A stretch of 11,508 bases of DNA from positions 1 through 11,508 of IMG/VR virus record IMGVR_UViG_2681813225_000024. The stretch is one strand, 5' to 3'. Below the pieces are notes generated by a model. That model worked only from the letters and a program-made list of their open reading frames with translations. It did no database searches and was not told the DNA's origin. Below are positions 1 through 11,508 of the stretch, in pieces (position 1 is the stretch's first letter; the number at the start of each line of letters is the position of its first letter). The stretch is from a virus (Duplodnaviria; Heunggongvirae; Uroviricota; Caudoviricetes). The position numbers and the translations under genes were made by a program.

Positions 1-603
1 TTTCACACCTTCCAGCATGGTTTCGGGTTTTACCCCCTCATTCAAACGGGCTTTCCAGGCTTTGAAGGCTGCAGATTTTGAATTGCCACCAGCACGTTTG
101 GGGTATGCCAGCCATGCCTGCTCAAACTCCGGAGAGTATTCCGGTCGGTTTGAACGAACTCGCACAGACTCATCAGCAGATGCACCAACAGCTATTGGTT
201 CATTGACTGGTTCAAAAGAGTGACTGGTTCTGGGTGAATCTCCTGCACTACCCCCTGGTGCAACTCCTGCACTACCTGGTGAATTTGCTGCACCAGATAG
301 TGAATTATTTGCACTACCCCCTAGTGAATCTCCTGCACCATCCAGATGAAGGAGATAGATATTACTTGAGTTACCTTTTTCACCTTTCCGGGTGACTTTT
401 TTTACCAGCCCGGAATCACAAAGGGCCGCAATATGATTCATCACAGAACGTTTGCTAATCTCGCACTGATCAGCAATATGCTGGTAGCTGGGCCAGCACT
501 CACCCTGATCGCTGGCATTATCAGCCAGCTTGATCAGAACCAGTTTTCGCAATGGATTACCCACTCGAATTTTCATCGCTTTAACCATCAGCTCCATACT
601 CAT
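1..603 (-). CDS. Phage replication initiation protein, N-terminal helix-turn-helix domain plus Gly/Ser/Ala-rich linker; 3' end lies beyond window start (partial)
   Basis: Manual minus-strand translation from ATG at 603..601 is open to position 1 (201 codons, no stop); it is absent from the ORF track because no stop lies in the window. Begins MSMELMVKAMKIRVGNPLRKLVLIKLADNASDQGECWPSYQHIADQCEISKRSVMNHIAALCDSGLVKK, which resembles the HTH domain found at the N-terminus of phage replication initiators. ATG overlaps the upstream gene stop as ATGA (coupling). It is the last gene of the PR-like operon. Confidence 0.7.
   Translation of the reverse strand, partial: MSMELMVKAMKIRVGNPLRKLVLIKLADNASDQGECWPSYQHIADQCEISKRSVMNHIAALCDSGLVKKVTRKGEKGNSSNIYLLHLDGAGDSLGGSANNSLSGAANSPGSAGVAPGGSAGDSPRTSHSFEPVNEPIAVGASADESVRVRSNRPEYSPEFEQAWLAYPKRAGGNSKSAAFKAWKARLNEGVKPETMLEGVK
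225..350. repeat. Imperfect tandem repeats (~21-24 bp units) inside the replication gene, encoding a low-complexity linker (GDSLGGSANNSLSGAANSPGSAGVAPGGSAGDSP)
   Basis: Plus strand shows reiterated units such as ggtgaatctcctgcactaccccct / ggtgcaactcctgcactacct / ggtgaatttgctgcacca / agtgaatctcctgcacca; the reading frame is maintained through them. Confidence 0.6.
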
Positions 604-836
604 GCTGCACCTCCGAGATGCTTCATGTTTTTTCCGGAGCGAAAGGTTATAAGCGGCATACTGACGCGGTAATTACGGCCCAGCGGTTCACAAATCACCT
701 TCTGACATTCACGGTCAACCAGGCTAACACGTAGAACATGCCCTGCAGGCGTGGTGTACCACTGCCCAACTGTAGGAATTGATGTTTTTTTACGCTGAAA
801 TAAACGGTAAATATTGAGGATCAACGGATTAAGCAT
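600..836 (-). CDS. Hypothetical small phage protein (78 aa)
   Basis: ORF track; ATG at 836..834; its stop overlaps the replication gene ATG (ATGA) and its start overlaps the upstream gene stop (ATGCTTAA), giving translational coupling within the operon. No recognisable motif. Confidence 0.45.
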   Translation of the reverse strand: MLNPLILNIYRLFQRKKTSIPTVGQWYTTPAGHVLRVSLVDRECQKVICEPLGRNYRVSMPLITFRSGKNMKHLGGAA

Positions 837-1473
837 GACGATGCCCTCCGCTGATATTCAGGAGACGGTGAATATGAAAATTAGCCTTATCCGCCAGACG
901 AATACGTTCAGCCTGCAAGTTAAGAAGGGTTTCTACCAGAACCTGATGCGCCTGCGGATCCGAAAGAGTTACCTTGCGCAGAGCACGTAGTGCAGTTGTT
1001 ACATAACTGAGTTTATGTAAGTCTTCATCATTCAGACGAGTGAGGGCTGGGACAGTAGCCATGATGGCAGCCTCCTTGATCGGTGAAATACTTCCACCAC
1101 CGGAAACGCCAATTTCGCTGGTGGTGAACTGAACGGGGTTGGCGTAACCGGTGATCAAGGAAACCGGCGCATCTTTCGATGCCCCCGCCCAGCCCACCAT
1201 AACTTTGATGTGAGCAAATGCGGACGATAAAAAAGACGCTGGCGCGTCATATATCGCCTTGATCAATTCCAGGACGCCAATCCCGGCACCCGCTTTATAA
1301 GGTGCCTGAACAGTGTAACGTCCCGGAATGGCAGAATCAATGTGCTGGTGGTCCTTCACACTCAACAAAATCACGCCTGAATTTCCACAAAGGACTAAAG
1401 CACTCATGCGGGTAGTCTTTGCGAAGATAGATAACGCGCTGTGTTTCTGGTTCCCAACGAATAACATGGACAT
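829..1473 (-). CDS. Hypothetical phage protein; start uncertain (ORF opens at TTG 1518; ATG at 1473 has RBS-like AAGAGGG just upstream)
   Basis: ORF track 829..1518, 229 aa. Sequence looks protein-like (ALVLCGNSGVILLSV, GVSGGGSISPIKEAAIMATVPALTRL). Its 5' part overlaps the upstream 109-aa ORF out of frame, so the start or the gene integrity is unresolved. Confidence 0.4.
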   Translation of the reverse strand: MSMLFVGNQKHSALSIFAKTTRMSALVLCGNSGVILLSVKDHQHIDSAIPGRYTVQAPYKAGAGIGVLELIKAIYDAPASFLSSAFAHIKVMVGWAGASKDAPVSLITGYANPVQFTTSEIGVSGGGSISPIKEAAIMATVPALTRLNDEDLHKLSYVTTALRALRKVTLSDPQAHQVLVETLLNLQAERIRLADKANFHIHRLLNISGGHRHA

Positions 1474-1666
1474 AAAGCCCTCTTCCGTCACGAAACCAGC
1501 GGTTAAGTTCCCGCACAACTCGCCCCCCCACAGTCAGGTAAAGTTCTCTGTGGTTACTTACAGCCAGGTGATTTGGTAATCTGCATTCATGCCGTAACAA
1601 CAGGTGTTCAGCGACACTGACCACCAGCTGTTGCGACAAACGGTTATTTGCCGTTAAACTGTTCAT
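1337..1666 (-). CDS. Hypothetical phage protein (109 aa)
   Basis: ORF track; ATG at 1666..1664 overlaps the stop of the upstream CII-like gene (ATGA); GGAG-containing RBS about 10 nt upstream. No recognised family. Confidence 0.45.
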   Translation of the reverse strand: MNSLTANNRLSQQLVVSVAEHLLLRHECRLPNHLAVSNHRELYLTVGGRVVRELNRWFRDGRGLYVHVIRWEPETQRVIYLRKDYPHECFSPLWKFRRDFVECEGPPAH

Positions 1667-2226
1667 GCGTTAGTTTCTCCACAGACACAAAACGCCACGA
1701 CGCCCGGAGCTGCACACTCGCGGGCGTCACTCTTTTCTGGAGCGCAAAAGATTTTGTAGACCAGTGCTGCATGCTCTTGGAGCTTCGAAATTGACAGATA
1801 CAACTCATCATTAATTGCTGTCTGCTCGTGTGGCTCCACGACCCCATCTTCGATTGCCGAACGAATCTGCTTTGAGTAATTCCCGATCTGTTCGATGACT
1901 TCCAGCAGGCGCTGGTTTATATCGGCGTTCTCTACTTCCTCAATTTCAGGAAGCGATACGAACACCCCACCAGCAGACTGTGCGACAGCATCCGCAATGT
2001 AGTGAGTGCCAGCCGCGCGCTGTAAAACCATTGCCCATCCCAGCGGGAAAATCTGATCGCCATCGGCACGAAGGCGGTTAAATAATGCGTTCTCTGTTAC
2101 ATCCAGCCAGTCAGCTGCTTCAGCGTAACCACCCGGCAACGCTGCGATAGTTTTTCTGACAGCTTTCACGTACCACTCAGGCTGTTTTTCTACTTTCCAG
2201 TGATACTTACCCACGGTTAGCCTCAT
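1663..2226 (-). CDS. Putative CII-like / YdaT-like early regulatory protein (about 183-187 aa)
   Basis: ORF track; sits immediately downstream of the Cro-like gene, the position CII holds in lambdoid phages and YdaT holds after YdaS. Alternative GTG start at 2214 has GAGG 6 nt upstream. The family call rests on synteny and weak recollection, not on a verified motif. Confidence 0.5.
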   Translation of the reverse strand: MRLTVGKYHWKVEKQPEWYVKAVRKTIAALPGGYAEAADWLDVTENALFNRLRADGDQIFPLGWAMVLQRAAGTHYIADAVAQSAGGVFVSLPEIEEVENADINQRLLEVIEQIGNYSKQIRSAIEDGVVEPHEQTAINDELYLSISKLQEHAALVYKIFCAPEKSDARECAAPGVVAFCVCGETNA

Positions 2227-2257
2227 CGTTCTGTGGTTAAAAATTGAAGGTGTTCTG

Positions 2258-2458
2258 TTAATCTTTCGGATAGATATCCGGTCTTAAGTCAGATTTCGTA
2301 ATTGCACCTGACGTGCATTGCTCAAGTTTTTTCGCCAGCACAAAACTGGCTTTTTTATAACCATTGAAAACCAGCCGTAAGTAGCCAGGTGTTGAGCCAA
2401 CTTTTCCGGCCAACTCGCCCTGCTGTTCTTTGGTTAAAGAGTCCCAATACGCTTTCAT
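2258..2458 (-). CDS. Cro-like HTH regulator (YdaS/Cro family), 66 aa from ATG 2458
   Basis: ORF track frame 2258..2563; internal ATG at 2458 gives MKAYWDSLTKEQQGELAGKVGSTPGYLRLVFNGYKKASFVLAKKLEQCTSGAITKSDLRPDIYPKD, a typical small Cro/YdaS-type HTH. AAGG RBS about 10 nt upstream. Divergent from the CI-like gene across an operator-bearing intergenic region. Confidence 0.65.
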   Translation of the reverse strand: MKAYWDSLTKEQQGELAGKVGSTPGYLRLVFNGYKKASFVLAKKLEQCTSGAITKSDLRPDIYPKD

Positions 2459-2464
2459 ACAATA

Positions 2465-2531
2465 TGTACCTTCAGTATACATATTACATGATTGAAATGA
2501 ACCTTCAAGATACTTGTACCTTATCGGTACA
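2465..2531. promoter_or_regulatory. OR-like operator cluster: three 17-bp sites fitting TGTAC-N7-GTACA, with divergent promoters for cro-like and cI-like genes
   Basis: Sites read directly: 2465-2481 TGTACCTTCAGTATACA; 2498-2514 TGAACCTTCAAGATACT; 2515-2531 TGTACCTTATCGGTACA (perfect palindromic half-sites). They lie between the cro-like start (2458, minus) and the cI-like start (2549, plus). Confidence 0.5.
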
Positions 2532-2548
2532 AAGGTTTTAATTTCGTT

Positions 2549-3223
2549 ATGAAAACAATCCATGACATCCGGCGGTCTAACGCCAGAAACCTGAGAGATG
2601 GTGTTGGCGGAAATTCATCCTTTGCCACCATGATTGATCGCGAGCCAACCCAGACCAGTAGGTTTATGGGGGATGGCGCTACTAAAAATATCGGTGACAG
2701 CATGGCACGGCACATCGAAAAATGTTTCGACCTGCCTGTCGGATGGCTTGATCAAGAACACCAGACAACGAACATCACAAAAAAACCTGATGTTTCAATC
2801 ACTAACAAACAAATAACGTTAGTCCCTGTCATATCATGGGTACAGGCCGGAGCATGGAAAGAAGTTGGCTATTCTGAGGTTGATTTGAGCACAGCAGAAA
2901 CGTATCCCTGCCCTGTCCCCTGTGGCGAAATGACTTATATCTTGCGGGTGATTGGTGATTCAATGATTGATGAGTACCGCCCTGGAGACATGATTTTTGT
3001 TGATCCCGAAGTCCCTGCCTGCCACGGTGACGACGTTATTGCATTGATGCACGATACAGGCGAAACCACCTTCAAGCGATTGATAGAAGATGGAACACAG
3101 CGTTATCTCAAAGCATTAAACCCAAACTGGCCTGAGCCTTACATTAAGATTAACGGTAATTGCTCTATAATTGGTACAGTGATTTTCTCGGGAAAACCAA
3201 GAAGATACACAATAAAGGTCTAA
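2549..3223 (+). CDS. CI/LexA-like prophage repressor (N-terminal HTH, C-terminal S24 peptidase autocleavage domain), 224 aa
   Basis: ORF track. C-terminal region has the S24 hallmarks: GDSM (Ser nucleophile) in RVIGDSMIDEYRPGDMIFVD and a downstream Lys in TTFKRL. The N-terminus is HTH-like. Weak RBS, as is common for cI genes. Confidence 0.85.
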   Translation: MKTIHDIRRSNARNLRDGVGGNSSFATMIDREPTQTSRFMGDGATKNIGDSMARHIEKCFDLPVGWLDQEHQTTNITKKPDVSITNKQITLVPVISWVQAGAWKEVGYSEVDLSTAETYPCPVPCGEMTYILRVIGDSMIDEYRPGDMIFVDPEVPACHGDDVIALMHDTGETTFKRLIEDGTQRYLKALNPNWPEPYIKINGNCSIIGTVIFSGKPRRYTIKV

Positions 3224-3235
3224 TCAATATTTATG

Positions 3236-3260
3236 AACCTGCTTCGGCAGGTTTTTTTAT
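3236..3260 (+). terminator. Rho-independent terminator downstream of the repressor gene
   Basis: Stem ACCTGC (3237-3242) / GCAGGT (3247-3252), loop TTCG, followed by a T7 run (3252-3258). Confidence 0.7.
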
Positions 3261-3262
3261 AC

Positions 3263-3291
3263 TTGACAATGTACTCATGAGATACATAACG
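3263..3291 (+). promoter_or_regulatory. PL-like early-left promoter with overlapping OL-like operator
   Basis: Perfect -35 TTGACA at 3263-3268; weak -10 candidate CATAAC about 16 bp downstream. The 17-bp site TGTACTCATGAGATACA (3270-3286) has the same TGTAC-N7-ATACA architecture as the OR sites. Confidence 0.4.
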
Positions 3292-3708
3292 TATCCAAAA
3301 GAAACATGGGGCAGGCAAGATTCAAACAAAATTTGGTTGTAACACGGCGTATGGCACATGCGTCGTTAGCGGTCTGGGGACGTTAAAGGGGACAATCCAC
3401 TCCTTGCTCGGGCAAACAAACCAGGTAGCCGGAATGTGCAAGTCAATGATGATGCTGATAAGACGCCTAACCAGCGTGGCGATCCGGTTTGACGCCTGGG
3501 AAGAGACCAGGGTGCAACGATGAGGGCATTTATGGAGCCGCGACAAAGTGTGGTGCCGTAACTGGCTAAGTGCTCTCAGCGTTGTGGTCATCCGCGAAAT
3601 GGCGCGGCGGTAAGTATGGCTGGGTTACTCTTTCCCCGTTGAGGACACCGGATTGTCAGGTTGACCATACGCCTGAGTGACAACCCCACCACAACAGCCA
3701 CTGCTTTG

Positions 3709-3755
3709 GCGGTACCAGTTTGTACACTTGCTTCCGGCTGGTACCGCTCTTTTTA
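3709..3755 (+). terminator. Terminator-like hairpin in the early-left leader
   Basis: 10-bp stem GCGGTACCAG (3709-3718) / CTGGTACCGC (3738-3747) followed by TCTTTTT. Confidence 0.4.
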
Positions 3756-3756
3756 C

Positions 3757-3845
3757 AAAACAGAGAAGAGCATCACCGGACGACGGGCTCATAACCCAAT
3801 CCATCCGGGCGGCTGCCACCGCAGGTGTTCTTCTCTGTTTTGTGG
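3757..3845 (+). terminator. Second long hairpin (13-bp perfect inverted repeat at base) immediately upstream of the first early gene RBS
   Basis: AAAACAGAGAAGA (3757-3769) is exactly complementary to TCTTCTCTGTTTT (3829-3841), enclosing a 59-nt GC-rich segment; ends in a U-run. Confidence 0.35.
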
Positions 3846-3891
3846 AGAAACCAACCGACCTTGCAGGGTCGATATGATGAGGAGCAGCAAA

Positions 3892-4254
3892 ATGGCTAGC
3901 GAACGCAGTACTGATGTGCAGGCATTTATCGGGGAGTTGGACGGCGGCGTATTTGAAACCAAAATCGGCGCTGTTCTCAGTGAAGTCGCTTCCGGTGTGA
4001 TGAACACGAAAACCAAAGGTAAGGTCTCACTCAACCTGGAAATCGAACCATTTGATGAGAACCGTGTGAAAATCAAACACAAACTCTCATATGTTCGCCC
4101 GACTAACCGCGGGAAAATTTCCGAAGAAGACACCACCGAAACGCCGATGTATGTCAATCGCGGTGGTCGCCTGACTATTCTGCAGGAAGACCAGGGACAA
4201 TTACTGACTCTTGCCGGTGAACCTGACGGAAAACTCCGCGCAGCAGGTCATTAA
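3892..4254 (+). CDS. yfdP: YfdP-like conserved prophage early protein (120 aa)
   Basis: ATG at 3892 preceded by GAGGAG with 7-nt spacing; lies in the ORF track frame 3661..4254. Length and position directly upstream of a YfdQ-like gene match the CPS-53 yfdPQRS order as I recall it. Symbol assigned by synteny, not verified. Confidence 0.5.
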   Translation: MASERSTDVQAFIGELDGGVFETKIGAVLSEVASGVMNTKTKGKVSLNLEIEPFDENRVKIKHKLSYVRPTNRGKISEEDTTETPMYVNRGGRLTILQEDQGQLLTLAGEPDGKLRAAGH

Positions 4255-4318
4255 TACGTTATTAATAAACTGATTATTTATCGCATCACTGAATATCTTT
4301 ATATAGTGAGGACTTATT

Positions 4319-5143
4319 ATGTCTCAGAACTTAGACGCAACCGCAATTAATCAAATCCATGCCCTTATTTCTGCTCAGGGTGTTAATGAAATTATCAGTA
4401 AGATTGGTGCCGATGCTGTGGCATTGCCTGAGAATTTCCGCATTCATGATCTGGAAAAATTTAATTTAAATCGTTTCCGTTTCCGTGGTGCGCTTTCCAC
4501 TGCCAGCATCGATGACTTTACCCGTTATTCTAAAGATCTTGCAGATGAAGGTACCCGCTGCTTTATCGATGCCGATAATATGCGTGCCGTCAGTGTGCTT
4601 AACCTGGGTACTATTGATGAGCCAGGTCACGCAGATAACACTGCCACTCTCAAACTGAAAAAGACAGCACCGTTCTCTGCTCTGTTATCTGTTAATGGCG
4701 AGCGTAACTCCCAGAAGTCACTGGCAGAATGGATTGAAGACTGGGCCGACTACCTTGTGGGCTTTGATGCTAATGGTGACGCTATTCAGGCAACAAAAGC
4801 GGCTGCGGCAGTCCGTAAAATCACGATTGAAGCAAACCAGACCGCTGATTTTGAAGATAATGACTTCAGCGGCAAACGCTCCCTGATGGAGTCTGTCGAA
4901 GCGAAGACCAAAGACATTATGCCAGTGGCATTTGAATTTAAATGCGTTCCGTTTGAAGGCCTTAAAGAACGTCCGTTTAAATTACGCCTCAGCATTATCA
5001 CTGGCGATCGTCCTGTACTGGTTCTGCGCATTATTCAGCTGGAAGCGGTGCAGGAAGAAATGGCTAACGAATTTCGTGATCTGCTTGTTGAGAAATTTAA
5101 AGACAGCAAAGTAGAAACCTTTATTGGTACTTTCACCGCCTGA
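4319..5143 (+). CDS. yfdQ: YfdQ-like protein (DUF2303 family), 274 aa
   Basis: ORF track; AGGA RBS about 9 nt upstream; size and sequence character consistent with E. coli CPS-53 YfdQ; followed by YfdR- and YfdS-like genes in the same order. Confidence 0.65.
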
Positions 5144-5155
5144 TTTCATTACTGC

Positions 5156-5177
5156 AAATGCCCCTGCGGGGGCATTT
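5156..5177 (+). terminator. Terminator-like hairpin after the yfdQ-like gene
   Basis: 9-bp stem AAATGCCCC (5156-5164) / GGGGCATTT (5169-5177), loop TGCG; the U-tract is short, so this may be an attenuator or RNA stability element. Confidence 0.35.
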
Positions 5178-5270
5178 ATGGAAACATAATTTACTCAATA
5201 ATCGCCAGATGGTGATGGCTTCCTTTTACCAGAATTCAGCGCGGTGCAGCGCATATACGTGGAGAACAAA

Positions 5271-5807
5271 ATGTCATTTATTAAAACTTTTTCCGGGAAG
5301 CATTTTTATTATGACAGGATAAATAAAGACGACATCGTGATTAACGATATCGCGGTTTCCCTTTCAAATATCTGTCGCTTTGCAGGACATCTTTCACACT
5401 TCTACAGCGTCGCCCAACATGCGGTGCTTTGCAGCCAGCTGGTACCGCAGGAATTTGCTTTTGAAGCGTTAATGCATGATGCAACAGAAGCATATTGCCA
5501 GGACATCCCCGCACCACTGAAACGCCTTCTTCCTGACTATAAACGGATGGAAGAAAAAATAGACGCCGTAATCCGTGAGAAATACGGGTTACCTCCTGTT
5601 ATGAGCACGCCAGTGAAATATGCCGATCTCATTATGCTGGCAACCGAACGCCGCGATCTCGGGCTTGATGATGGCTCTTTCTGGCCTGTACTGGAAGGTA
5701 TCCCGGCGACAGAGATGTTCAAAGTTATTCCACTGTCACCAGGCCATGCCTACGGGATGTTTATGGAACGTTTTAACGAGTTATCGGAGTTACGCAAATG
5801 CGCATGA
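5271..5807 (+). CDS. yfdR: HD-domain phosphohydrolase, YfdR-like 5'-deoxynucleotidase (178 aa)
   Basis: ATG at 5271 with GGAGA RBS 5 nt upstream (track ORF opens at GTG 5244). HD motif context in AQHAVLCSQL...ALMHDATEAYCQDIP. Size matches YfdR. Confidence 0.65.
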   Translation: MSFIKTFSGKHFYYDRINKDDIVINDIAVSLSNICRFAGHLSHFYSVAQHAVLCSQLVPQEFAFEALMHDATEAYCQDIPAPLKRLLPDYKRMEEKIDAVIREKYGLPPVMSTPVKYADLIMLATERRDLGLDDGSFWPVLEGIPATEMFKVIPLSPGHAYGMFMERFNELSELRKCA

Positions 5808-6160
5808 ATGTTTTCGAAATGGAAGGGTTTCTTCGCGGGAAATGTGTACCGCGAGATCTGAAAGTGAACGAAACAAATGCTGAGTACCTGGTACGTAAAT
5901 TCGATGCGCTTGAAGCTAAATGTACGGCACTGGAAAACAAAATAATACCAGTGTCAGCTGAACTGCCACCAGCAAATGAAAGTGTTCTGTTATTTGATGC
6001 TAACGGAGAAGGCTGGCTAATTGGCTGGCGTTCTCTCTGGTACACCTGGGGACAAAAAGAAACCGGAGAATGGCAGTGGACATTTCAGATCGGGGACCTT
6101 GAAAACGTCAATATCACTCACTGGGCAGTAATGCCGAAAGCACCGGAGAATAAGAAATGA
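5798..6160 (+). CDS. yfdS: YfdS-like protein (120 aa)
   Basis: ORF track; start overlaps the yfdR-like stop; GGAG 8 nt upstream; size and synteny match YfdS. Confidence 0.55.
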   Translation: MRMNVFEMEGFLRGKCVPRDLKVNETNAEYLVRKFDALEAKCTALENKIIPVSAELPPANESVLLFDANGEGWLIGWRSLWYTWGQKETGEWQWTFQIGDLENVNITHWAVMPKAPENKK

Positions 6161-6360
6161 GCGTGATAAAAACTCATACAGGAATTGTTATCACCCGAGA
6201 CGGTCCGCAGGTAAAAAAACTGCACCAGACAAAGCGGATGTGGGTCGTCGGAAAAAACGAGTTTTACCGCAAAGAAACCGGACGCCGCCACTTTGCAGAA
6301 AATACGCGCCGCCGACTGCTGATCGACAGCATCAAGCCTATCGAGGTGAAGCATGTTTAA
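6157..6360 (+). CDS. Hypothetical small basic protein (67 aa)
   Basis: ORF track; ATGA overlap with the preceding stop; GGAG 8 nt upstream. Confidence 0.45.
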   Translation: MSVIKTHTGIVITRDGPQVKKLHQTKRMWVVGKNEFYRKETGRRHFAENTRRRLLIDSIKPIEVKHV

Positions 6361-6592
6361 ACAGAACGAAAAATCTATCGCTCAAATTGCTGAGTATATC
6401 CCGCGTGCGTGCCGGGGTATGCAGTTGCAGGAAGCCAAAGCGCGCCTGGAGAAAAAAATTGCGCTCTATATCGATGACGGCTGTGATGCTGCCGTTCTTA
6501 ACGCAGCGTTCGCGCCAGCTCTTAACAGTCATACGCGGGAGTCTTTTTTTTCGCGCATCGCAGCGCAGATCCGTAAAGGAGGCAACCAGTGA
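6353..6592 (+). CDS. Hypothetical protein (79 aa)
   Basis: ORF track; start overlaps the previous stop; GAGG RBS upstream; protein-like composition. Confidence 0.45.
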   Translation: MFKQNEKSIAQIAEYIPRACRGMQLQEAKARLEKKIALYIDDGCDAAVLNAAFAPALNSHTRESFFSRIAAQIRKGGNQ

Positions 6593-7143
6593 GCGAGATT
6601 AACTATCAGGCTCTGCGACTGGCGGCAGAAAATGCAACACCAGGCGAATGGTGTGCTGATGACTACCATGGAGTAATTGCCGATGCCGGACTGAACGCCA
6701 ATTACTACATAGCATCATGCTCAGGACCAGATAATCGCGCCAATAAACGATTCATAGCCGCCGCCAATCCTGCCACCGTCTTGGCGCTGCTGGATGAGCT
6801 GGAAGCAGCAGAGAAGCGAAACGCTGAATTACAAAGCGAGAATGCATACATCCGCAACCGGTACAAAGAACTGGACCTATTAATCGGGAAAAATATTCTG
6901 GTCATGCAGGCTGCCATTATCGAATGGCAGGCAACTGGCGACGCTAAGAGCGGACTGGCATGGATTTATAACACACTGTTTGGCCCTGGCGAATTACCGG
7001 ACGAATCTGAGAAAGATGCTCAGGCCTACTTTAATCGCAAATATGCACCGATTGACGAAAAGCTTATGGCGCTTCACAAGTGGTTTTGGGAACAAAGTGA
7101 AGCCGAGCGCGCCGCCGCCAACATTGGTGTGAAGGGGAAGTGA
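6589..7143 (+). CDS. Ead/Ea22-like family protein (184 aa)
   Basis: ORF track; GTG start overlapping the upstream stop (GTGA) with AAAGGAGG 7 nt upstream. N-terminal LRLAAENATPGEW and a coiled-coil-like middle region are typical of Ea22-like early-left proteins. Confidence 0.6.
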   Translation: MSEINYQALRLAAENATPGEWCADDYHGVIADAGLNANYYIASCSGPDNRANKRFIAAANPATVLALLDELEAAEKRNAELQSENAYIRNRYKELDLLIGKNILVMQAAIIEWQATGDAKSGLAWIYNTLFGPGELPDESEKDAQAYFNRKYAPIDEKLMALHKWFWEQSEAERAAANIGVKGK

Positions 7144-7144
7144 G

Positions 7145-7336
7145 ATGAACGGACAAATCTCAATTGTTCGACCGGGAGCATGTGACGATTGCGAGATACG
7201 AATGATTATTCGTCTGGCGATGGGGAAAACAATAACTGCTCTCATTACTCCAGAAAATCTCGCATTAGCATTAACAGGAAAGTCAGACCTGCCAGTAGAG
7301 CTAAAGCTGCGAAATGTTGAGATTAAGGTGAAATAG
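7145..7336 (+). CDS. Hypothetical small protein (63 aa)
   Basis: ORF track; starts 1 nt after the upstream stop; purine-rich RBS. Confidence 0.4.
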   Translation: MNGQISIVRPGACDDCEIRMIIRLAMGKTITALITPENLALALTGKSDLPVELKLRNVEIKVK

Positions 7337-7338
7337 CT

Positions 7339-8346
7339 ATGACCACTATTACCAAAGAGCGACTGCTGACAATCAAGCAGTGGCGCGAAACATACGGACC
7401 TGGTAGCAACGTTGTACTGCCAGCAGAAGAAGCGGAAGAACTGGCACGGATTGCACTGGCATCATTGGAAGCAGATCCAGTTAAACGAGTTAACTCAGAT
7501 CAGATGCACCGAGTCTGCTTAGAAGCTAATCGCTATTTAGATAAATATGACGCGATGGCGAAAGAGGTAAATAAGTTGCTTGGACGCATCGCCCCGCCAG
7601 CGCCAGTATTTAACGGCGAATACGGTGACGCATATCAGGGCGCTCGTGAAGACCTGTCCATCTGGAAACGGCGAGCGCTTGAAGCTGATGAGCACGTTCG
7701 GCGACTGGAGCAAATCAATGACCACATGGTGAAAGAGGCGCAGGGAGAATCACGCATGGGCGAGCCTGTAATACGTGAGCCAGCACCGGTAGTGCCTGAA
7801 GAAGCAACTCCGGAAAACGTAGAAATGCTCTCTGGCTATGTTTCAACGTACAAATTAACCGATAGCGAGCGCGATATTGCTGCCGAAATATGGAACGCCT
7901 GCCGCGCCGCCATGCTTCAGGGTAGCCAACCTGTAAGCCAAACTTACAAGTTTCCAGTTAATACACCTTGCCAGGATGCGCCAGCCCATATCTGGCTGCA
8001 AACAGCTGGAGTATGGCCAGAAGATGGCGAGTTAAGCGAATTAACGTGGTGCAGCCACAATCAGCACCATGATGACACGCTATATGTTCGAGCTGACTTG
8101 GTAAATGGCAACTCTCCGGGAACTCCGGATAGTTGGATAAGCTGTAGTGATCAAATGCCTGAAAAGGGCCAGAACGTGCTTATTTCGGTGAATTTCGATA
8201 GCTCTCTGGTTGAACCGCTAATATGCTCCGCACGCTATACCGGAAGAACCTTTCGGCGCGGAGATGCAACGATTAAGCCGGGTAATGGTATTGAGCAAGC
8301 AACTCACTGGATGCCGCTACCGGAACCGCCGCAGGAGGTGAAGTGA
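7339..8346 (+). CDS. DUF551 domain-containing phage protein (335 aa)
   Basis: ORF track; C-terminal HWMPLPEPP is characteristic of DUF551 proteins in enterobacterial prophages; AAGGTGA RBS. Confidence 0.6.
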   Translation: MTTITKERLLTIKQWRETYGPGSNVVLPAEEAEELARIALASLEADPVKRVNSDQMHRVCLEANRYLDKYDAMAKEVNKLLGRIAPPAPVFNGEYGDAYQGAREDLSIWKRRALEADEHVRRLEQINDHMVKEAQGESRMGEPVIREPAPVVPEEATPENVEMLSGYVSTYKLTDSERDIAAEIWNACRAAMLQGSQPVSQTYKFPVNTPCQDAPAHIWLQTAGVWPEDGELSELTWCSHNQHHDDTLYVRADLVNGNSPGTPDSWISCSDQMPEKGQNVLISVNFDSSLVEPLICSARYTGRTFRRGDATIKPGNGIEQATHWMPLPEPPQEVK

Positions 8347-8918
8347 TGAACAACTTAATGATCGACCTTGAGACGATGGGGAAAAATAAGGATGCACCGA
8401 TCGTTTCCATTGGCGCGGTGTTCTTCACTCCAGAAACCGGAGACATCGGACAAGAATTCTATACGGTTGTTAGCCTGGAAAGTGCTATGGGGCAAGGAGC
8501 TACACCTGACGGCGATACCATCCTGTGGTGGTTGAAACAAAGCCCTGAAGCACGAGCTGCAATCTGTATTGATGATACTTTGTCGATCAGCGATGCTCTC
8601 TCAGAACTAAATCATTTCATTAACCGGCACGCAGCCAATACGAAATATTTAAAAGTCTGGGGTAACGGGGCCACCTTCGACAACGTAATTTTACGTGGAG
8701 CTTATGAGCGAGCAGGACAAATCTGCCCGTGGGCATACTGGAATGACCACGATGTACGCACGATCGTTACGCTTGGGCGTTCCATCGGATTCGACCCCAA
8801 AATGGACATGCCTTTCGATGGCGAACGGCACAACGCCCTGGCCGATGCCCGTCATCAGGCAAAATATGTTTCCGCTATCTGGCAGAAATTAATTCCTGCC
8901 ACCAGCACAGAATTATGA
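8346..8918 (+). CDS. DnaQ-like (DEDD) 3'-5' exonuclease, phage-type (190 aa)
   Basis: ORF track 8343..8918; ATG at 8346 overlaps the upstream stop, with GGAGGTGA RBS. N-terminal MIDLETMG matches exo motif I (D-x-E); later acidic and His residues fit the DEDDh pattern. Confidence 0.65.
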   Translation: MNNLMIDLETMGKNKDAPIVSIGAVFFTPETGDIGQEFYTVVSLESAMGQGATPDGDTILWWLKQSPEARAAICIDDTLSISDALSELNHFINRHAANTKYLKVWGNGATFDNVILRGAYERAGQICPWAYWNDHDVRTIVTLGRSIGFDPKMDMPFDGERHNALADARHQAKYVSAIWQKLIPATSTEL

Positions 8919-8954
8919 TTTTCCCGGGTGCAGCCGGTTTTGATGGAGAAAATT

Positions 8955-9236
8955 ATGAACACCTTGTTTTTACTGATGGCTGAATTCAATACCCCTAACA
9001 TTGAACTCTCAGCAGTTAGCCAAAAGTACTTTGGCATGAGTCCAGCCACGGCAGAAGCAAAAGCAAACGCTTGTAAGTTGCCCGTTCCAACATATCGCAT
9101 CGGCACATCACAAAAAGCAAAACGTTGCATCAATATTCAGGATCTTGCGGAATACATAGACAAAAGACGAGAAGAAGGACGTATCGAGTGGGAACAGGTC
9201 AGAACAAGCAAACAGAAGGGCAAAGAACATCACTAA
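8955..9236 (+). CDS. PrtN/AlpA-like small DNA-binding regulator, possibly excisionase-like (93 aa from ATG 8955)
   Basis: ORF track frame 8928..9236; ATG at 8955 with GGAG 7 nt upstream. MNTLFLLMAEF...PVPTYRIGTSQKAKRCINIQDLAEYIDKRREEG resembles pyocin-activator PrtN family proteins. Last gene before the bidirectional terminator. Confidence 0.55.
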   Translation: MNTLFLLMAEFNTPNIELSAVSQKYFGMSPATAEAKANACKLPVPTYRIGTSQKAKRCINIQDLAEYIDKRREEGRIEWEQVRTSKQKGKEHH

Positions 9237-9240
9237 AGAA

Positions 9241-9264
9241 AAAACCCGCCTAAAGGCGGGTTTT
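9241..9264. terminator. Bidirectional rho-independent terminator
   Basis: AAAACCCGCC-TAAA-GGCGGGTTTT; GC stem flanked by A-run and T-run, so it works on both strands. Ends the plus-strand early operon and the convergent minus-strand small ORF. Confidence 0.8.
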
Positions 9265-9283
9265 CAAAAAGCACCAGCTATGA

Positions 9284-9457
9284 TCATGCTGCTTTGCGAC
9301 GACGAAGCTTACCCTGCTGCTCTTTACCAGAGACAGTAGCGTGAGTGAACGCATTAGGAGCAGCCTTCATCAGAACTTCAACAGCAGCACCCATACCTGC
9401 GAATGCTTTCATTGTGTCGAACTTAACCTGTGGCTTGGTTGCTTTTTGATCTTTCAT
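9284..9457 (-). CDS. Small hypothetical protein, 57 aa (MKDQKATKPQVKFDTMKAFAGMGAAVEVLMKAAPNAFTHATVSGKEQQGKLRRRKAA)
   Basis: Not in the ORF track (under 60 aa); found by manual translation. ATG at 9457..9455 with GGGAG 6 nt upstream; stop TGA at 9286..9284 just before the bidirectional terminator. Lys-rich N-terminus, hydrophobic core, basic C-terminal tail. Confidence 0.5.
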   Translation of the reverse strand: MKDQKATKPQVKFDTMKAFAGMGAAVEVLMKAAPNAFTHATVSGKEQQGKLRRRKAA

Positions 9458-9653
9458 AGAAAACTCCCGAGACAGTAAAGGCGTCTCTAACCCTTTCTTT
9501 AAAGCTAGCTTGTTTCGCTAACTTATGCCAATCGATCATGTCGATTGGTGACATCGTTTCTTAGTAGTTTAAGCACAAAACGACTGCCATAGATGTACCT
9601 TTAAGGTAATCTGGACGGGTATCCTACAATTTGTAGACCCTTCTCGTCTATAC

Positions 9654-10190
9654 CTACTGAGCAAATTTAAGAAAGATATCCTGCAGCTCATCAATGACTG
9701 CCGACATCACATAACCGCACTGTTCCATGTGGAAACCAAAAGACTCGTAATACTGCACCAGTTCTGGTACTGGCTCTACAATGTGGACAACTTTACATTC
9801 AACAGCTTTACAAAATATAAAAGCACTCATAAGAGTGAGTAAAACCATGCGCCCTTTCAATGGGTGAGATTCATCTTCTCTAGAAAACCTTTCGATCATA
9901 TGGATACGAAAGATGTTTTCTTCAACCCCATAAACACAAATTGCTGCTCCTGATGGTATTCCCTGAACCCGACCTTGCTGAACAAGTTTTATACAGAACT
10001 CATACTTTTCTCTGGAGTTGCCATAGGTACTTAACGCATAGTCCCATTCAAGCTCACCATAGCCACCACACAGAATCTTGTAATCATCATCACTGAGCGG
10101 ACCAACAGCAAGAGGTAAGCCGACATGATCAATAATCAACTGGATATTGTTACGTACTGATTGACCTATCTCGTCCAGGGTAAGCATCAT
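9654..10190 (-). CDS. Hypothetical protein (178 aa) in AT-rich cargo; weak resemblance to a GNAT-like acyltransferase fold
   Basis: ORF track; tandem ATGs at 10190 and 10187 with GAGG upstream. Loose fit to a GNAT C-terminal pattern (IHMIERF...LKGRMVLLTLMSAFIFCKA...YYESFGF) but no clear Q/R-x-x-G-x-G/A acetyl-CoA motif. Visibly more AT-rich than the phage early genes. Confidence 0.5.
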   Translation of the reverse strand: MMLTLDEIGQSVRNNIQLIIDHVGLPLAVGPLSDDDYKILCGGYGELEWDYALSTYGNSREKYEFCIKLVQQGRVQGIPSGAAICVYGVEENIFRIHMIERFSREDESHPLKGRMVLLTLMSAFIFCKAVECKVVHIVEPVPELVQYYESFGFHMEQCGYVMSAVIDELQDIFLKFAQ

Positions 10191-10219
10191 GGCCTCTCAA
10201 GCGGAACACTAAAAGTCGC

Positions 10220-10225
10220 ATTATA
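10220..10225 (-). promoter_or_regulatory. Candidate -10 hexamer (TATAAT on minus strand) for the 178-aa gene
   Basis: Plus ATTATA at 10220-10225 is TATAAT on the minus strand, about 29 nt upstream of the ATG; no convincing -35. Confidence 0.3.
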
Positions 10226-10739
10226 TCTCATTCTTAAGCCGCGTATGGATTACACCTTGAAATGAAAACGCCGGGTTCCCAATAGGCTCCCACAGAGTGT
10301 ATAACTACTTGTTTTTCAAAAACGGTACATCCTATCGAGCATTGGTGCAACGCTAAACCGACCACTCCAGTGAACGTCAGTTTTTTCAGGCATTGCGCTG
10401 GTTTGGTTGATTTTTTGCATTTCAGAATTACCGTGCATTTTCAAATGTAGAGATTATTTTATCAATATATCATGGGGTTATGTTATTCAGCTTCACTGTT
10501 CAGGAGGCTCAATAGCGGGGTACTATACCATAACAACAGGAAGCGCCTGTCTCATTGCAAAAGAAAATTGAGATCCTCTCAAGGCATGAAGCTCTCACGA
10601 AGTGATGGAAATAATCTTATTAGCCGTTAACTTTGTTAAGGCCAATGATAAACAATCCAGGTTCGACGATAAATAAAAAATCACACATTAAACTCTGGTG
10701 ATATATCTCCCTGCTAATAGCATTGATAGAGAAAAAAGA

Positions 10740-10757
10740 ACCCAATAAATATTGGGT
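10740..10757 (-). terminator. Rho-independent terminator of the 235-aa gene
   Basis: Hairpin ACCCAAT-AAAT-ATTGGGT; on the minus strand it is followed by TCTTTTTTCTC, and it lies about 45 nt downstream of the stop at 10801-10803. Confidence 0.6.
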
Positions 10758-10800
10758 CCTTTTATATAATGCCTTCCATACTATCGAAGAACTTCACATA

Positions 10801-11508
10801 TTATTTCTCCGATTTAACCCCGAACAAATCATAAATTAATTTAGAAGTGTCTGTAAGTATTTTAATCTCTTCCTTTGAGGTTGGGTCAAACGACTTCGCG
10901 AAGCTAATTAATTGTGGTGCAGCATCTCGCATTTTGCTTAAAATATCAGGATCGAGCGTTCCTTCATTCACCAGATGTGACATCTTATCCAGATAGCCAT
11001 CAAAATTCATTTCTCCCCCATCAGCCAGACGCTTCATCTCTCCCAAGTACTTCTTCATATCACGTTGAGATAATTTTTCAAACTGAGCTTTCAGGTAGCT
11101 CTCATTATTTTCATTAATATACACTGTTTCTGATAAATCTGCGTAGGCACTAGAATATGAAAGTGAAATTAACAGCGAAGCAAATAATTTTAAGCTGTTG
11201 TCATCATGTTCCTGGCAGGCATTAACAAACGTTAAAAAACCAGAACCTATTGCTTGAAAATGTATATTCGCTAAAGGTTCATTATCCTTAGATTCCTCAT
11301 AAAATAGCTGAACCGTGGAGGGAAGGCCATTCTTAGTTTCTACATCAAAAGTACATTGTTCAATGGGAGTCGCATCTTTATTATCCCCAGGATTACATAT
11401 ACTATTAATCGCGAAATGAAAAATAGCCCGGTCAACAACTGATGCAATAAAGTCACGATCGTTTAAATCCTCATCAGTGCAATCGTCAATATACTTATTG
11501 ACCCACAT
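10801..11508 (-). CDS. Hypothetical acidic protein (at least 235 aa), AT-rich, unknown function; 5' end may extend beyond the window
   Basis: ORF track; the first in-window ATG sits exactly at the window edge (11508..11506), so the true start is uncertain. Long uninterrupted frame with coherent protein-like composition despite low GC; own terminator downstream. Confidence 0.5.
   Translation of the reverse strand: MWVNKYIDDCTDEDLNDRDFIASVVDRAIFHFAINSICNPGDNKDATPIEQCTFDVETKNGLPSTVQLFYEESKDNEPLANIHFQAIGSGFLTFVNACQEHDDNSLKLFASLLISLSYSSAYADLSETVYINENNESYLKAQFEKLSQRDMKKYLGEMKRLADGGEMNFDGYLDKMSHLVNEGTLDPDILSKMRDAAPQLISFAKSFDPTSKEEIKILTDTSKLIYDLFGVKSEK

Follow-up and report, generated by a model that had tools for sequence, protein, structure and literature searches.

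The short open reading frame (ORF) of 57 codons on the minus strand of the Caudoviricetes record IMGVR_UViG_2681813225_000024 (IMG/VR; positions 1 to 11,508, this whole stretch of 11,508 nucleotides (nt) being referred to as the window) is a real prophage gene, conserved and under purifying selection, and it is the near-constant downstream partner of a gene encoding a GNAT-fold protein, with which it forms a mobile two-gene cassette. The ORF itself is not new, being catalogued as a hypothetical protein; what is new here is its pairing with the GNAT-fold gene, the mobility of the cassette between phage modules and the conserved leader in front of the small gene. By analogy with known gene pairs the small protein may act as an antitoxin-like partner or neutraliser of the GNAT protein, a reading to which we assign a probability of roughly 0.35-0.4. 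The genes and signals concerned are:

9284..9457, minus strand: small protein gene, 57 amino acids (aa), MKDQKATKPQVKFDTMKAFAGMGAAVEVLMKAAPNAFTHATVSGKEQQGKLRRRKAA, defined by the ORF and by RefSeq, GenBank and PHROG matches
9464..9468, minus strand: Shine-Dalgarno (SD) sequence GGGAG; the minus strand reads CGGGAG-TTTTCT-ATG, which places it 6 nt ahead of the ATG
9240..9265, both strands: intrinsic terminator hairpin, common to the small gene and a convergent excisionase-like gene, 11 pairs (6 G-C) followed by a T-run
9654..10190, minus strand: GNAT-fold partner gene, 178 aa (PHROG 4350; mEp460 gp23), defined by a structure model and a phrog_4350 match

The 57-aa ORF was accepted as a real gene because its ratio of nonsynonymous to synonymous substitution rates (dN/dS) is low and because its length and frame are kept from Escherichia coli to Shewanella. 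By the Nei-Gojobori method the median dN/dS was 0.18 and the maximum 0.36 (84 pairs with dS > 0.2), the alternative frames hold stop codons, and frame and length persist down to 29% identity, which is reached in Shewanella. A purine-rich SD sequence (GGGAG, GAGG, GGAG or GGGG) stands at an equal distance from the ATG in every lineage. A first-pass annotation of the window had put forward conservation and dN/dS as a check on the ORF, and these values bear it out as a gene, which also has expression signals of its own; re-reading of the sequence also confirmed the coordinates of the ORF, of the GGGAG 6 nt ahead of its ATG, of the terminator and of two upstream palindromes, together with the perfection of the latter. 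Its description of the ORF as unannotated was right for the ORF track it had used and wrong elsewhere, since RefSeq already lists the ORF as the hypothetical protein WP_000654815.1, GenBank names it gp24 in phage mEp460, and it matches phrog_2741 with E = 8.1e-36, residues 1-57 lying on profile positions 1-57 of 57; all three entries are without assigned function in the databases. An ORF arisen by chance within a non-coding spacer or a small-RNA locus, to which the shortness of the ORF and the lack of domain or known-function family matches might point, is effectively refuted by the dN/dS of 0.18, the frame and length kept to 29% identity, the conserved SD sequence and this full-length PHROG match.

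Homologues of the small gene were found in Escherichia, Salmonella, Enterobacter, Atlantibacter, Pseudescherichia, Franconibacter, Cronobacter and Hafnia, and context searches added those of Serratia, Edwardsiella, Photorhabdus and Shewanella. When 1.84 billion representative proteins were searched with a profile, only 12 clusters were returned, 11 of them with proteins of 54-77 aa and one a spurious repeat protein. The members share the pattern F-[DE]-T-x-x-A-F-x-x-M-G-A-A-V-[ED]-x-L-x-K-A-A-P ... E-x-Q-G-[KR]-x-R ... A-A-COOH, in which the C-terminus is basic and ends with Ala-Ala in nearly all members (RKAA, KVAA, QEAA or KRAA; a few end with VA). Such a basic ...AA terminus resembles the ClpX recognition motifs of the ssrA type (...LAA) and of the MuA type (basic, then small residues), and the small protein may be ClpXP-labile, with the conserved ...R-K-A-A end as a plausible degron. 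Its AlphaFold2 model (predicted local distance difference test score, pLDDT, 74) consists of a single helix (residues 15-32) flanked on either side by disordered basic tails; as modelled, the helix is amphipathic and carries charges, and the protein is not hydrophobic. Sequence searches of Pfam, NCBIfam, PADLOC and the PDB gave no match for either the 57-aa or the 178-aa protein. The stop codon of the small gene lies 18 nt from the 11-bp G+C-rich hairpin of the terminator, whose T-run is longer on the minus than on the plus strand and at which the convergent PrtN/excisionase-like gene (8928..9236, plus strand; PF11112, E = 4e-23; phrog_1300 'excisionase' match) also ends; terminator-like hairpins likewise end homologues elsewhere in phages (L102-L104, L094).

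The 178-aa protein matches phrog_4350 with E = 4e-103, a family without known function, and has no Pfam or NCBIfam match at E <= 1 and no PDB relative by profile search. Its model (pLDDT 90.9) has a GNAT acyltransferase fold, an assignment which we consider certain at the level of the predicted structure. The best PDB match of the model in Foldseek was the Salmonella toxin TacT3 (E = 6e-6, TM 0.56), with AtaT and KacT near it in the ranking and RimI, GCN5 and NatD likewise, and a search of a viral fold library returned generic GNAT proteins only. The structural neighbours appear to lean to enzymes that acetylate alpha-amino groups, toxins and housekeeping enzymes not being separated by these neighbours. 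The conserved loop of the protein reads HPLKGRM, which differs from the canonical acetyl-CoA motif Q/RxxGxG/A.

At all evaluable loci of GNAT homologues a small-gene homologue of 56-60 aa was present 93-197 nt downstream, the distance in the window being 196 nt. The evaluable metagenome loci with the pair among those inspected (14 of 14, two of them with GNATs that are 42-43% identical) have a homologue of 57-60 aa that starts 122-197 nt downstream of the GNAT gene. Pairwise identities of the GNAT and the small protein correlate (r = 0.83), so that the two proteins diverge together, and in the Shewanella pair the GNAT is 43% and the small protein 29% identical. The pair was found at the attP-xis site in E. 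coli, Salmonella and mEp460, the last with the local order int(-), attP, gp23(+), gp24(+), xis(-), exo(-) and thus with the integrase on the other side of gp23; between the antiterminator Q and the holin/lysis genes in Hafnia, Serratia, Edwardsiella and the Logan-assembly contigs L092/L093; within the tail module in Photorhabdus; and beside cas3 in the Logan-assembly contig L096. That the ORF does not stand alone and is the downstream partner of a GNAT-fold gene was a point missed by the first-pass annotation.

The exceptions to the pairing run in one direction, as small genes without a GNAT gene were found and GNAT genes without a small gene were not found among the loci evaluated. The loci of interest outside the window are:

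L003 3973-4961 (Escherichia phage Lys8385Vzw), also in L062-type viral contigs: Panacea-domain gene plus overlapping 139-aa gene, family unknown
L094/L095 4001-4156: solo small gene of a Cronobacter phage, between the terminase and portal genes
L090 2150-3109 and L091 2051-3109: RelA_SpoT-domain gene of Hafnia

Lys8385Vzw-type prophages of E. coli have, in place of the GNAT gene and its following leader, the Panacea-domain gene (PF13274, E = 2e-19) and the 139-aa gene overlapping it; the small gene persists 39 nt behind the replacing operon, and the sequence is homologous to the window again from exactly GGAGTTTTCT-ATG onward. PanA-type toxin-antitoxin pairs show this arrangement of a Panacea gene with an overlapping second gene (PMC8832971), and the replacing pair is probably of this type, with an uncharacterised toxin. 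Cronobacter phages carry a solo small gene of 51 aa, shortened at its C-terminus; terminator-like hairpins flank it, and its surroundings contain no GNAT gene. An 85-aa ORF upstream of it was considered as a remnant of a GNAT gene and rejected. In Hafnia the RelA_SpoT-domain gene (319-352 aa) lies immediately upstream of the cassette, between the antiterminator Q and the holin gene, and possibly encodes a toxic small alarmone synthetase or a CapRel-like defence protein. Anti-defence genes adjoin the cassette, e.g. an Acb2/Tad1-like gene in Serratia.

The interval between the two genes holds a promoter candidate and a predicted leader with the following elements:

9621..9650, minus strand: sigma-70-like promoter candidate, -35 TAGACG (9645-9650), 18-nt spacer, -10 TAGGAT (9621-9626), proposed from conservation
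9458..9614, minus strand: predicted structured 5' leader, about 157 nt from the inferred start, with five tandem hairpins
9591..9612, minus strand: leader hairpin H1 (TTACC..GGTAA), where the transcript is predicted to begin, proposed from folding and alignment
9550..9588, minus strand: leader hairpin H2, stem CGTTT/AAACG, whose sequence varies while a hairpin is kept
9528..9548, minus strand: leader hairpin H3, the palindrome CCAATCG-N7-CGATTGG, arms conserved and loop free
9502..9524, minus strand: leader hairpin H4 (AAGTTAGC..GCTAGCTT), with a few two-sided changes and several G-U changes
9469..9487, minus strand: leader hairpin H5 (GAGAC..GTCTC), abutting the SD sequence on its 5' side

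An intergenic alignment of ten lineages (A5) shows invariant TAGAC and TA..AT elements separated by a freely variable spacer of 16-18 nt. Throughout these lineages, and in Serratia and Hafnia as well, the -35-like TAGACG either overlaps the stop codon of the GNAT gene or comes immediately after it, and Shewanella has TTGATA-16-TATAAT at the position of the promoter. From these sequences we infer that the small gene has its own weak sigma-70 promoter, with transcription starting near 9614. The leader that would follow folds in the window with z = -3.0 to -3.6 against dinucleotide shuffles, and 12 of 15 lineages gave z between -2 and -6. The stems of H2 elsewhere are CATCAAA/TTTGATG (L006), CATCGT/ACGATG (L007), ATCTGC/GCAGAT (L009) and GGTAACAT/ATGTTACC (L005); the GTCTC of H5 is invariant in A5, and Hafnia has GAGC/GCTC at its place. 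One-sided changes in H1, H3 and H4 lead mostly to G-U pairs on the sense strand. Comparison of the leader with Rfam 15 gave no family at the gathering threshold, the sub-threshold matches being centred on the terminator.

An ATG just 5' of H3 is also conserved. It opens a 9-codon frame M-x-P/L-I-x-x-x-D/N-W-stop in five lineages (the L005-L009 leaders) and a frame of 19-43 codons in E. coli types, which in the window is a 43-aa ORF (9423..9554, minus strand). A leader peptide starting at this ATG was disfavoured, as the arms are invariant at third codon positions, the variable bases form a block of 7 contiguous ones and an SD sequence is lacking, features that argue for a constraint on the nucleotides and not on a peptide; a regulatory mini-ORF at this ATG is possible.

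We propose that the GNAT gene and the 57-aa gene are the first and the second gene of a temperate-phage cassette of the kind called a moron, and that the small gene would be transcribed from its own weak promoter through the hairpin leader of about 157 nt up to its own terminator. The small protein may then bind and restrain the GNAT enzyme or otherwise partner it. The GNAT would be the effector, perhaps an N-alpha-acetylating toxin or a defence enzyme, and the small protein a labile neutraliser with a promoter of its own, in the manner of reverse-order toxin-antitoxin pairs. The antitoxin-like reading is suggested by the sister prophages that carry a probable Panacea-type toxin-antitoxin pair at the slot of the cassette and by the RelA_SpoT-domain gene beside the Hafnia cassette. 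The GNAT would be the dangerous component because small genes occur alone and GNAT genes do not, and the solo copies in Cronobacter phages and behind the Panacea pair suggest that the small protein is harmless by itself. Its single helix with disordered tails recalls the neutralising peptides of TacA, AtaR and KacA, which is consistent with a partner-like role.

Several points weigh against this proposal. The enzyme-first order and the spacer of 93-197 nt are unlike those of classical GNAT/RHH pairs, the small protein has no DNA-binding domain (no Pfam match; a single predicted helix), and neither protein matches PADLOC, Pfam or NCBIfam models. The promoter candidate agrees with the sigma-70 consensus at 8 of 12 positions, which is below the threshold of the promoter scan. 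Covariation in H1, H3 and H4 is weak, since 83.8% of the cells of the MAFFT alignment are paired against 82.6% after shuffling and 25 of 500 shuffles reach the score, a result due to the conservation of the hairpin arms as sequence. The conservation of the H3 arms fits a sequence-specific RNA hairpin and equally a DNA site for a dimer.

Among known systems, the cassette is most readily compared with the GNAT/RHH pairs (TacAT, AtaRT, KacAT and ItaRT), which likewise join a GNAT-fold enzyme of about 160-180 aa to a small protein on a mobile element and whose toxins TacT3, AtaT and KacT rank high among the structural matches of the 178-aa protein. The toxins of this family inhibit growth, acetylating aminoacyl-tRNA, and are neutralised by their antitoxins, whose genes lie upstream and overlap or abut the toxin gene and whose short, partly disordered C-terminal helix occupies the groove of the enzyme. 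The present pair differs in that, despite the GNAT fold of the 178-aa protein, it yields no Pfam acetyltransferase or DUF1778 hit; in its reversed gene order and its spacer of 93-197 nt with a separate candidate promoter and a predicted structured leader; and in the lack of an RHH (DUF1778) antitoxin upstream, the small protein being without an RHH domain. It thus falls outside the GNAT/RHH family on two defining characters, the sequence family and the upstream RHH antitoxin, and may work like that family all the same, judging by analogy.

Reverse-order toxin-antitoxin operons such as rnlAB, mqsRA and higBA have an internal promoter for the antitoxin, and their genes abut or overlap. The cassette is like them in having the effector gene first, with the candidate promoter of the partner inside or just after it; we know of no structured leader of about 150 nt in operons of this type. 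Phage morons are autonomous promoter-gene-terminator inserts between phage modules. The cassette resembles them in its own terminator, its promoter-like elements, its variable presence and its sites (attP-xis, Q-lysis and tail genes), and its position is variable, as it occupies at least three phage positions and is replaced by the Panacea-domain pair; it differs in that moron is a term of architecture and not of function, and in comprising two genes with an internal promoter candidate.

The pairing and the co-divergence of the proteins would also suit a cooperation that is not of the toxin-antitoxin kind, in which the GNAT has the small protein as its substrate, as its carrier or as a subunit conferring specificity or regulation, and the two serve lysogenic conversion or anti-defence, e.g. 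by acetylating a target of the host or of a rival phage. The pairing is obligate, the closest folds include the protein N-terminal acetyltransferases NatD, Naa20, Ard1 and RimI, the small protein has a conserved MK.QK N-terminus, many lysines and an invariant E-x-Q-G-K/R motif placed in the disordered tail, and the cassette stands at moron positions beside anti-defence genes (Acb2/Tad1-like in Serratia). We nevertheless hold it to be less likely than the antitoxin-like reading, given that position 50 alternates between K and R, which argues against an acetyl acceptor there, that small genes exist without the enzyme, and that no target is indicated by the present data.

The long leader raises the opposite assignment, namely a small toxin that is silenced by its leader and has the GNAT as its antidote, in the manner of TopAI-YjhQ. 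In this E. coli pair the small 85-aa protein TopAI (YjhX) is encoded first and is the toxin (PMC4666372; PMC12121999), and YjhQ of 181 aa provides a precedent for an antitoxin of the GNAT family (PMC4666372). The cassette has in common with it a small protein, a GNAT-family protein of about 180 aa and a long regulatory 5' region, and a hairpin-rich 5' leader with a separate promoter is typical of tightly controlled small toxins. The mRNAs of type I toxins (hok, tisB, zorO and dinQ) offer a further likeness, a small ORF behind a long and highly folded 5' untranslated region. The assignment is improbable, however, as many E. coli prophages retain the small gene with neither the GNAT nor the leader, at 39 nt from another operon that precedes it, and Cronobacter phages have it solo, which argues against toxicity of the small protein. 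In addition, the gene order is opposite to that of topAI-yjhQ, and no sequence similarity to that pair was found. The small protein is no hydrophobic membrane peptide of the type I sort and is mostly disordered by prediction, with a charged helix and basic disordered tails; sequence scans revealed no Rfam antisense family and no promoter-like site opposite the leader that would signal an antisense RNA. The suggestion of the first-pass annotation that the ORF could encode a small toxin is disfavoured for the same two reasons, the solo copies without GNAT and the non-hydrophobic protein, and the exclusion factor or regulator that it had named besides are possible roles.

Returning to the antitoxin-like reading, its fullest form is doubtful and would be an undescribed phage-borne toxin-antitoxin or defence system in which a one-helix, mostly disordered and ClpXP-labile antidote without a DNA-binding domain has its supply set post-transcriptionally by a conserved multi-hairpin leader, the CCAATCG-N7-CGATTGG stem-loop being part of it, and in which the solo copies are anti-defence 'orphan antidotes'. 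No paper on either protein was found by accession number or PHROG identifier, and searches of the literature on dusA, prophages and acetyltransferases and on GNAT toxins and anti-phage systems, together with the NetFlax paper, yielded no description of the pair. The cassette is present in about a tenth of complete E. coli genomes and also in prophages of Salmonella, Enterobacter, Cronobacter, Hafnia, Serratia, Edwardsiella, Photorhabdus and Shewanella, and neither of its proteins can be assigned to a catalogued defence system or to a family whose function is known. If a toxin-antitoxin or defence role is true, a GNAT effector gains a new kind of minimal partner, the replacement by the Panacea pair becomes a like-for-like swap, and the solo small genes become candidate anti-defence factors. 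The leader would be a compact, conserved and testable example of the post-transcriptional control of a small phage protein. Should the pair turn out to be an ordinary accessory enzyme and its helper, the result is still a useful annotation for PHROGs 2741 and 4350.

The first-pass annotation had interpreted the two perfect palindromes upstream of the ORF as sites of dimeric regulators:

9528-9548: palindrome 1, CCAATCGA-TCATG-TCGATTGG, perfect, the same element as H3
9624-9636: palindrome 2, CTACAA-T-TTGTAG, perfect, in the spacer of the promoter candidate, its right arm overlapping the -10 element

Perfect inverted repeats are frequent in the window, with 50 of them against about 28 expected for arms of at least 6 nt and loops of at most 8 nt, and 10 against about 1.5 expected for arms of at least 8 nt; the 8-5-8 palindrome at 9528-9548 ranks 22nd. 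It is raised above chance solely by its conservation across genera, as the arms of CCAATCG-N7-CGATTGG are near-invariant and the 7-nt loop is free in E. coli, Salmonella, Enterobacter, Pseudescherichia, Franconibacter and metagenome lineages, and C-to-T changes in the left arm leave U-G pairing on the sense strand. The conservation expected of both palindromes was thus seen for the first and not for the second. At 9624-9636 close E. coli relatives have CTACAGATTGTAG and Salmonella, despite a 98% identical protein, has AGACAGATTGTAG, while other genera have unrelated spacers at this place, some with a different palindrome, GGGATCCC; palindrome 2 is best read as a lineage-specific or chance feature.

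The motif CCAATCG-N7-CGATTGG was also considered as a widespread operator and rejected. No second copy with up to 3 mismatches was found in the window, and among the 119 IMG/VR matches listed, 42 lie upstream of the small gene and 77, with 65 different motif sequences, lie elsewhere, the latter being about the number expected by chance for 14 specified bases on a rough estimate of the database size. For 9528-9548 an RNA hairpin is favoured over a DNA site for a dimer, as it lies about 70 nt inside the predicted transcript, is flanked by covarying hairpins, is present in a single copy and is not a general phage motif.

The operators of the prophage itself differ from both palindromes. The sequence TGTACC-N5-GGTACA occurs at 2465, 2498, 2515 and 3270, flanking the S24-type repressor gene (2549..3223, plus strand), and these sites are likely the operators of this resident repressor. 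They span 2465-2531 and 3270-3286, the first three lying in the cI/cro intergenic region and the fourth just past the repressor gene. Operator-like sites with up to 3 mismatches number 11 against 2.9 expected, and H1 (9594-9610) resembles the operator at 2 mismatches. In mEp460 the hairpins H1 and H3 and the 9624-type palindrome are identical and the repressor shares only the S24 domain with that of the window; TGTACC-N5-GGTACA operators were not found in the 3-kb stretch around the mEp460 repressor gene. H1 was therefore rejected as a resident operator, its likeness, which does not track the immunity type, being taken as coincidence.

The model in which the small gene is a stand-alone regulator, exclusion factor or toxin controlled by CI, Cro or host dimers at the palindromes accordingly has little probability. 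It could draw on the perfection of both repeats and on the conserved arms of 9528-9548, whose fixed 7-nt spacing also fits a dimer site. Palindrome 2, in turn, is unconserved and of a kind met at chance frequency, both palindromes are unlike TGTACC-N5-GGTACA and are kept in mEp460 with an unrelated repressor, which speaks against CI- or Cro-type operators in particular, and 9528-9548 lies about 70 nt downstream of the promoter-like hexamers, with no second copy in the window and with most of its database matches away from the small gene. The small gene moreover does not stand alone, as all the evaluable GNAT loci set out above carry it.

A lambdoid prophage has inserted in the 5' end of dusA, and the window is its accessory end, so that the location of the ORF at a junction of phage and cargo, as first described, holds in the sense that it lies next to the dusA attachment junction:

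10316..10444, minus strand: 5' remnant of host dusA at the prophage end (junction near 10330), recognised from the start of the ORF

This ORF begins with MHGNSEMQKINQTSAMPEKTDVHWSGRFSVAPMLD, which we take to be the N-terminus of DusA. In the Salmonella and E. coli loci the cassette adjoins zur, yjbJ and dinF, and the region is present at 95-100% identity in 562 of 5,426 complete E. coli genomes.

At 3687-3747 on the minus strand the window also matches, base for base, the first 61 nt of sRNA-17, which is a small RNA modulated by ArcA and reported in an mEp460-like prophage of E. coli K1 RS218 (PMC7719688). The remainder of this 193-nt RNA, as judged by the Northern probe of that paper, is absent from the window, which thus holds what PMC7719688 terms a 'degenerative' copy. 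The small-gene region was considered as sRNA-17 and rejected, the matching 61 nt mapping 5.7 kb away. Upstream of the start of the GNAT gene lies a perfect TATAAT at 10220-10225 (minus strand). The orphaned start of dusA and a promoter-like TTGATA-17-GAAAAT (10437-10465, minus strand) point into the prophage toward the GNAT gene, so that read-through of the cassette from the host in lysogens is conceivable.

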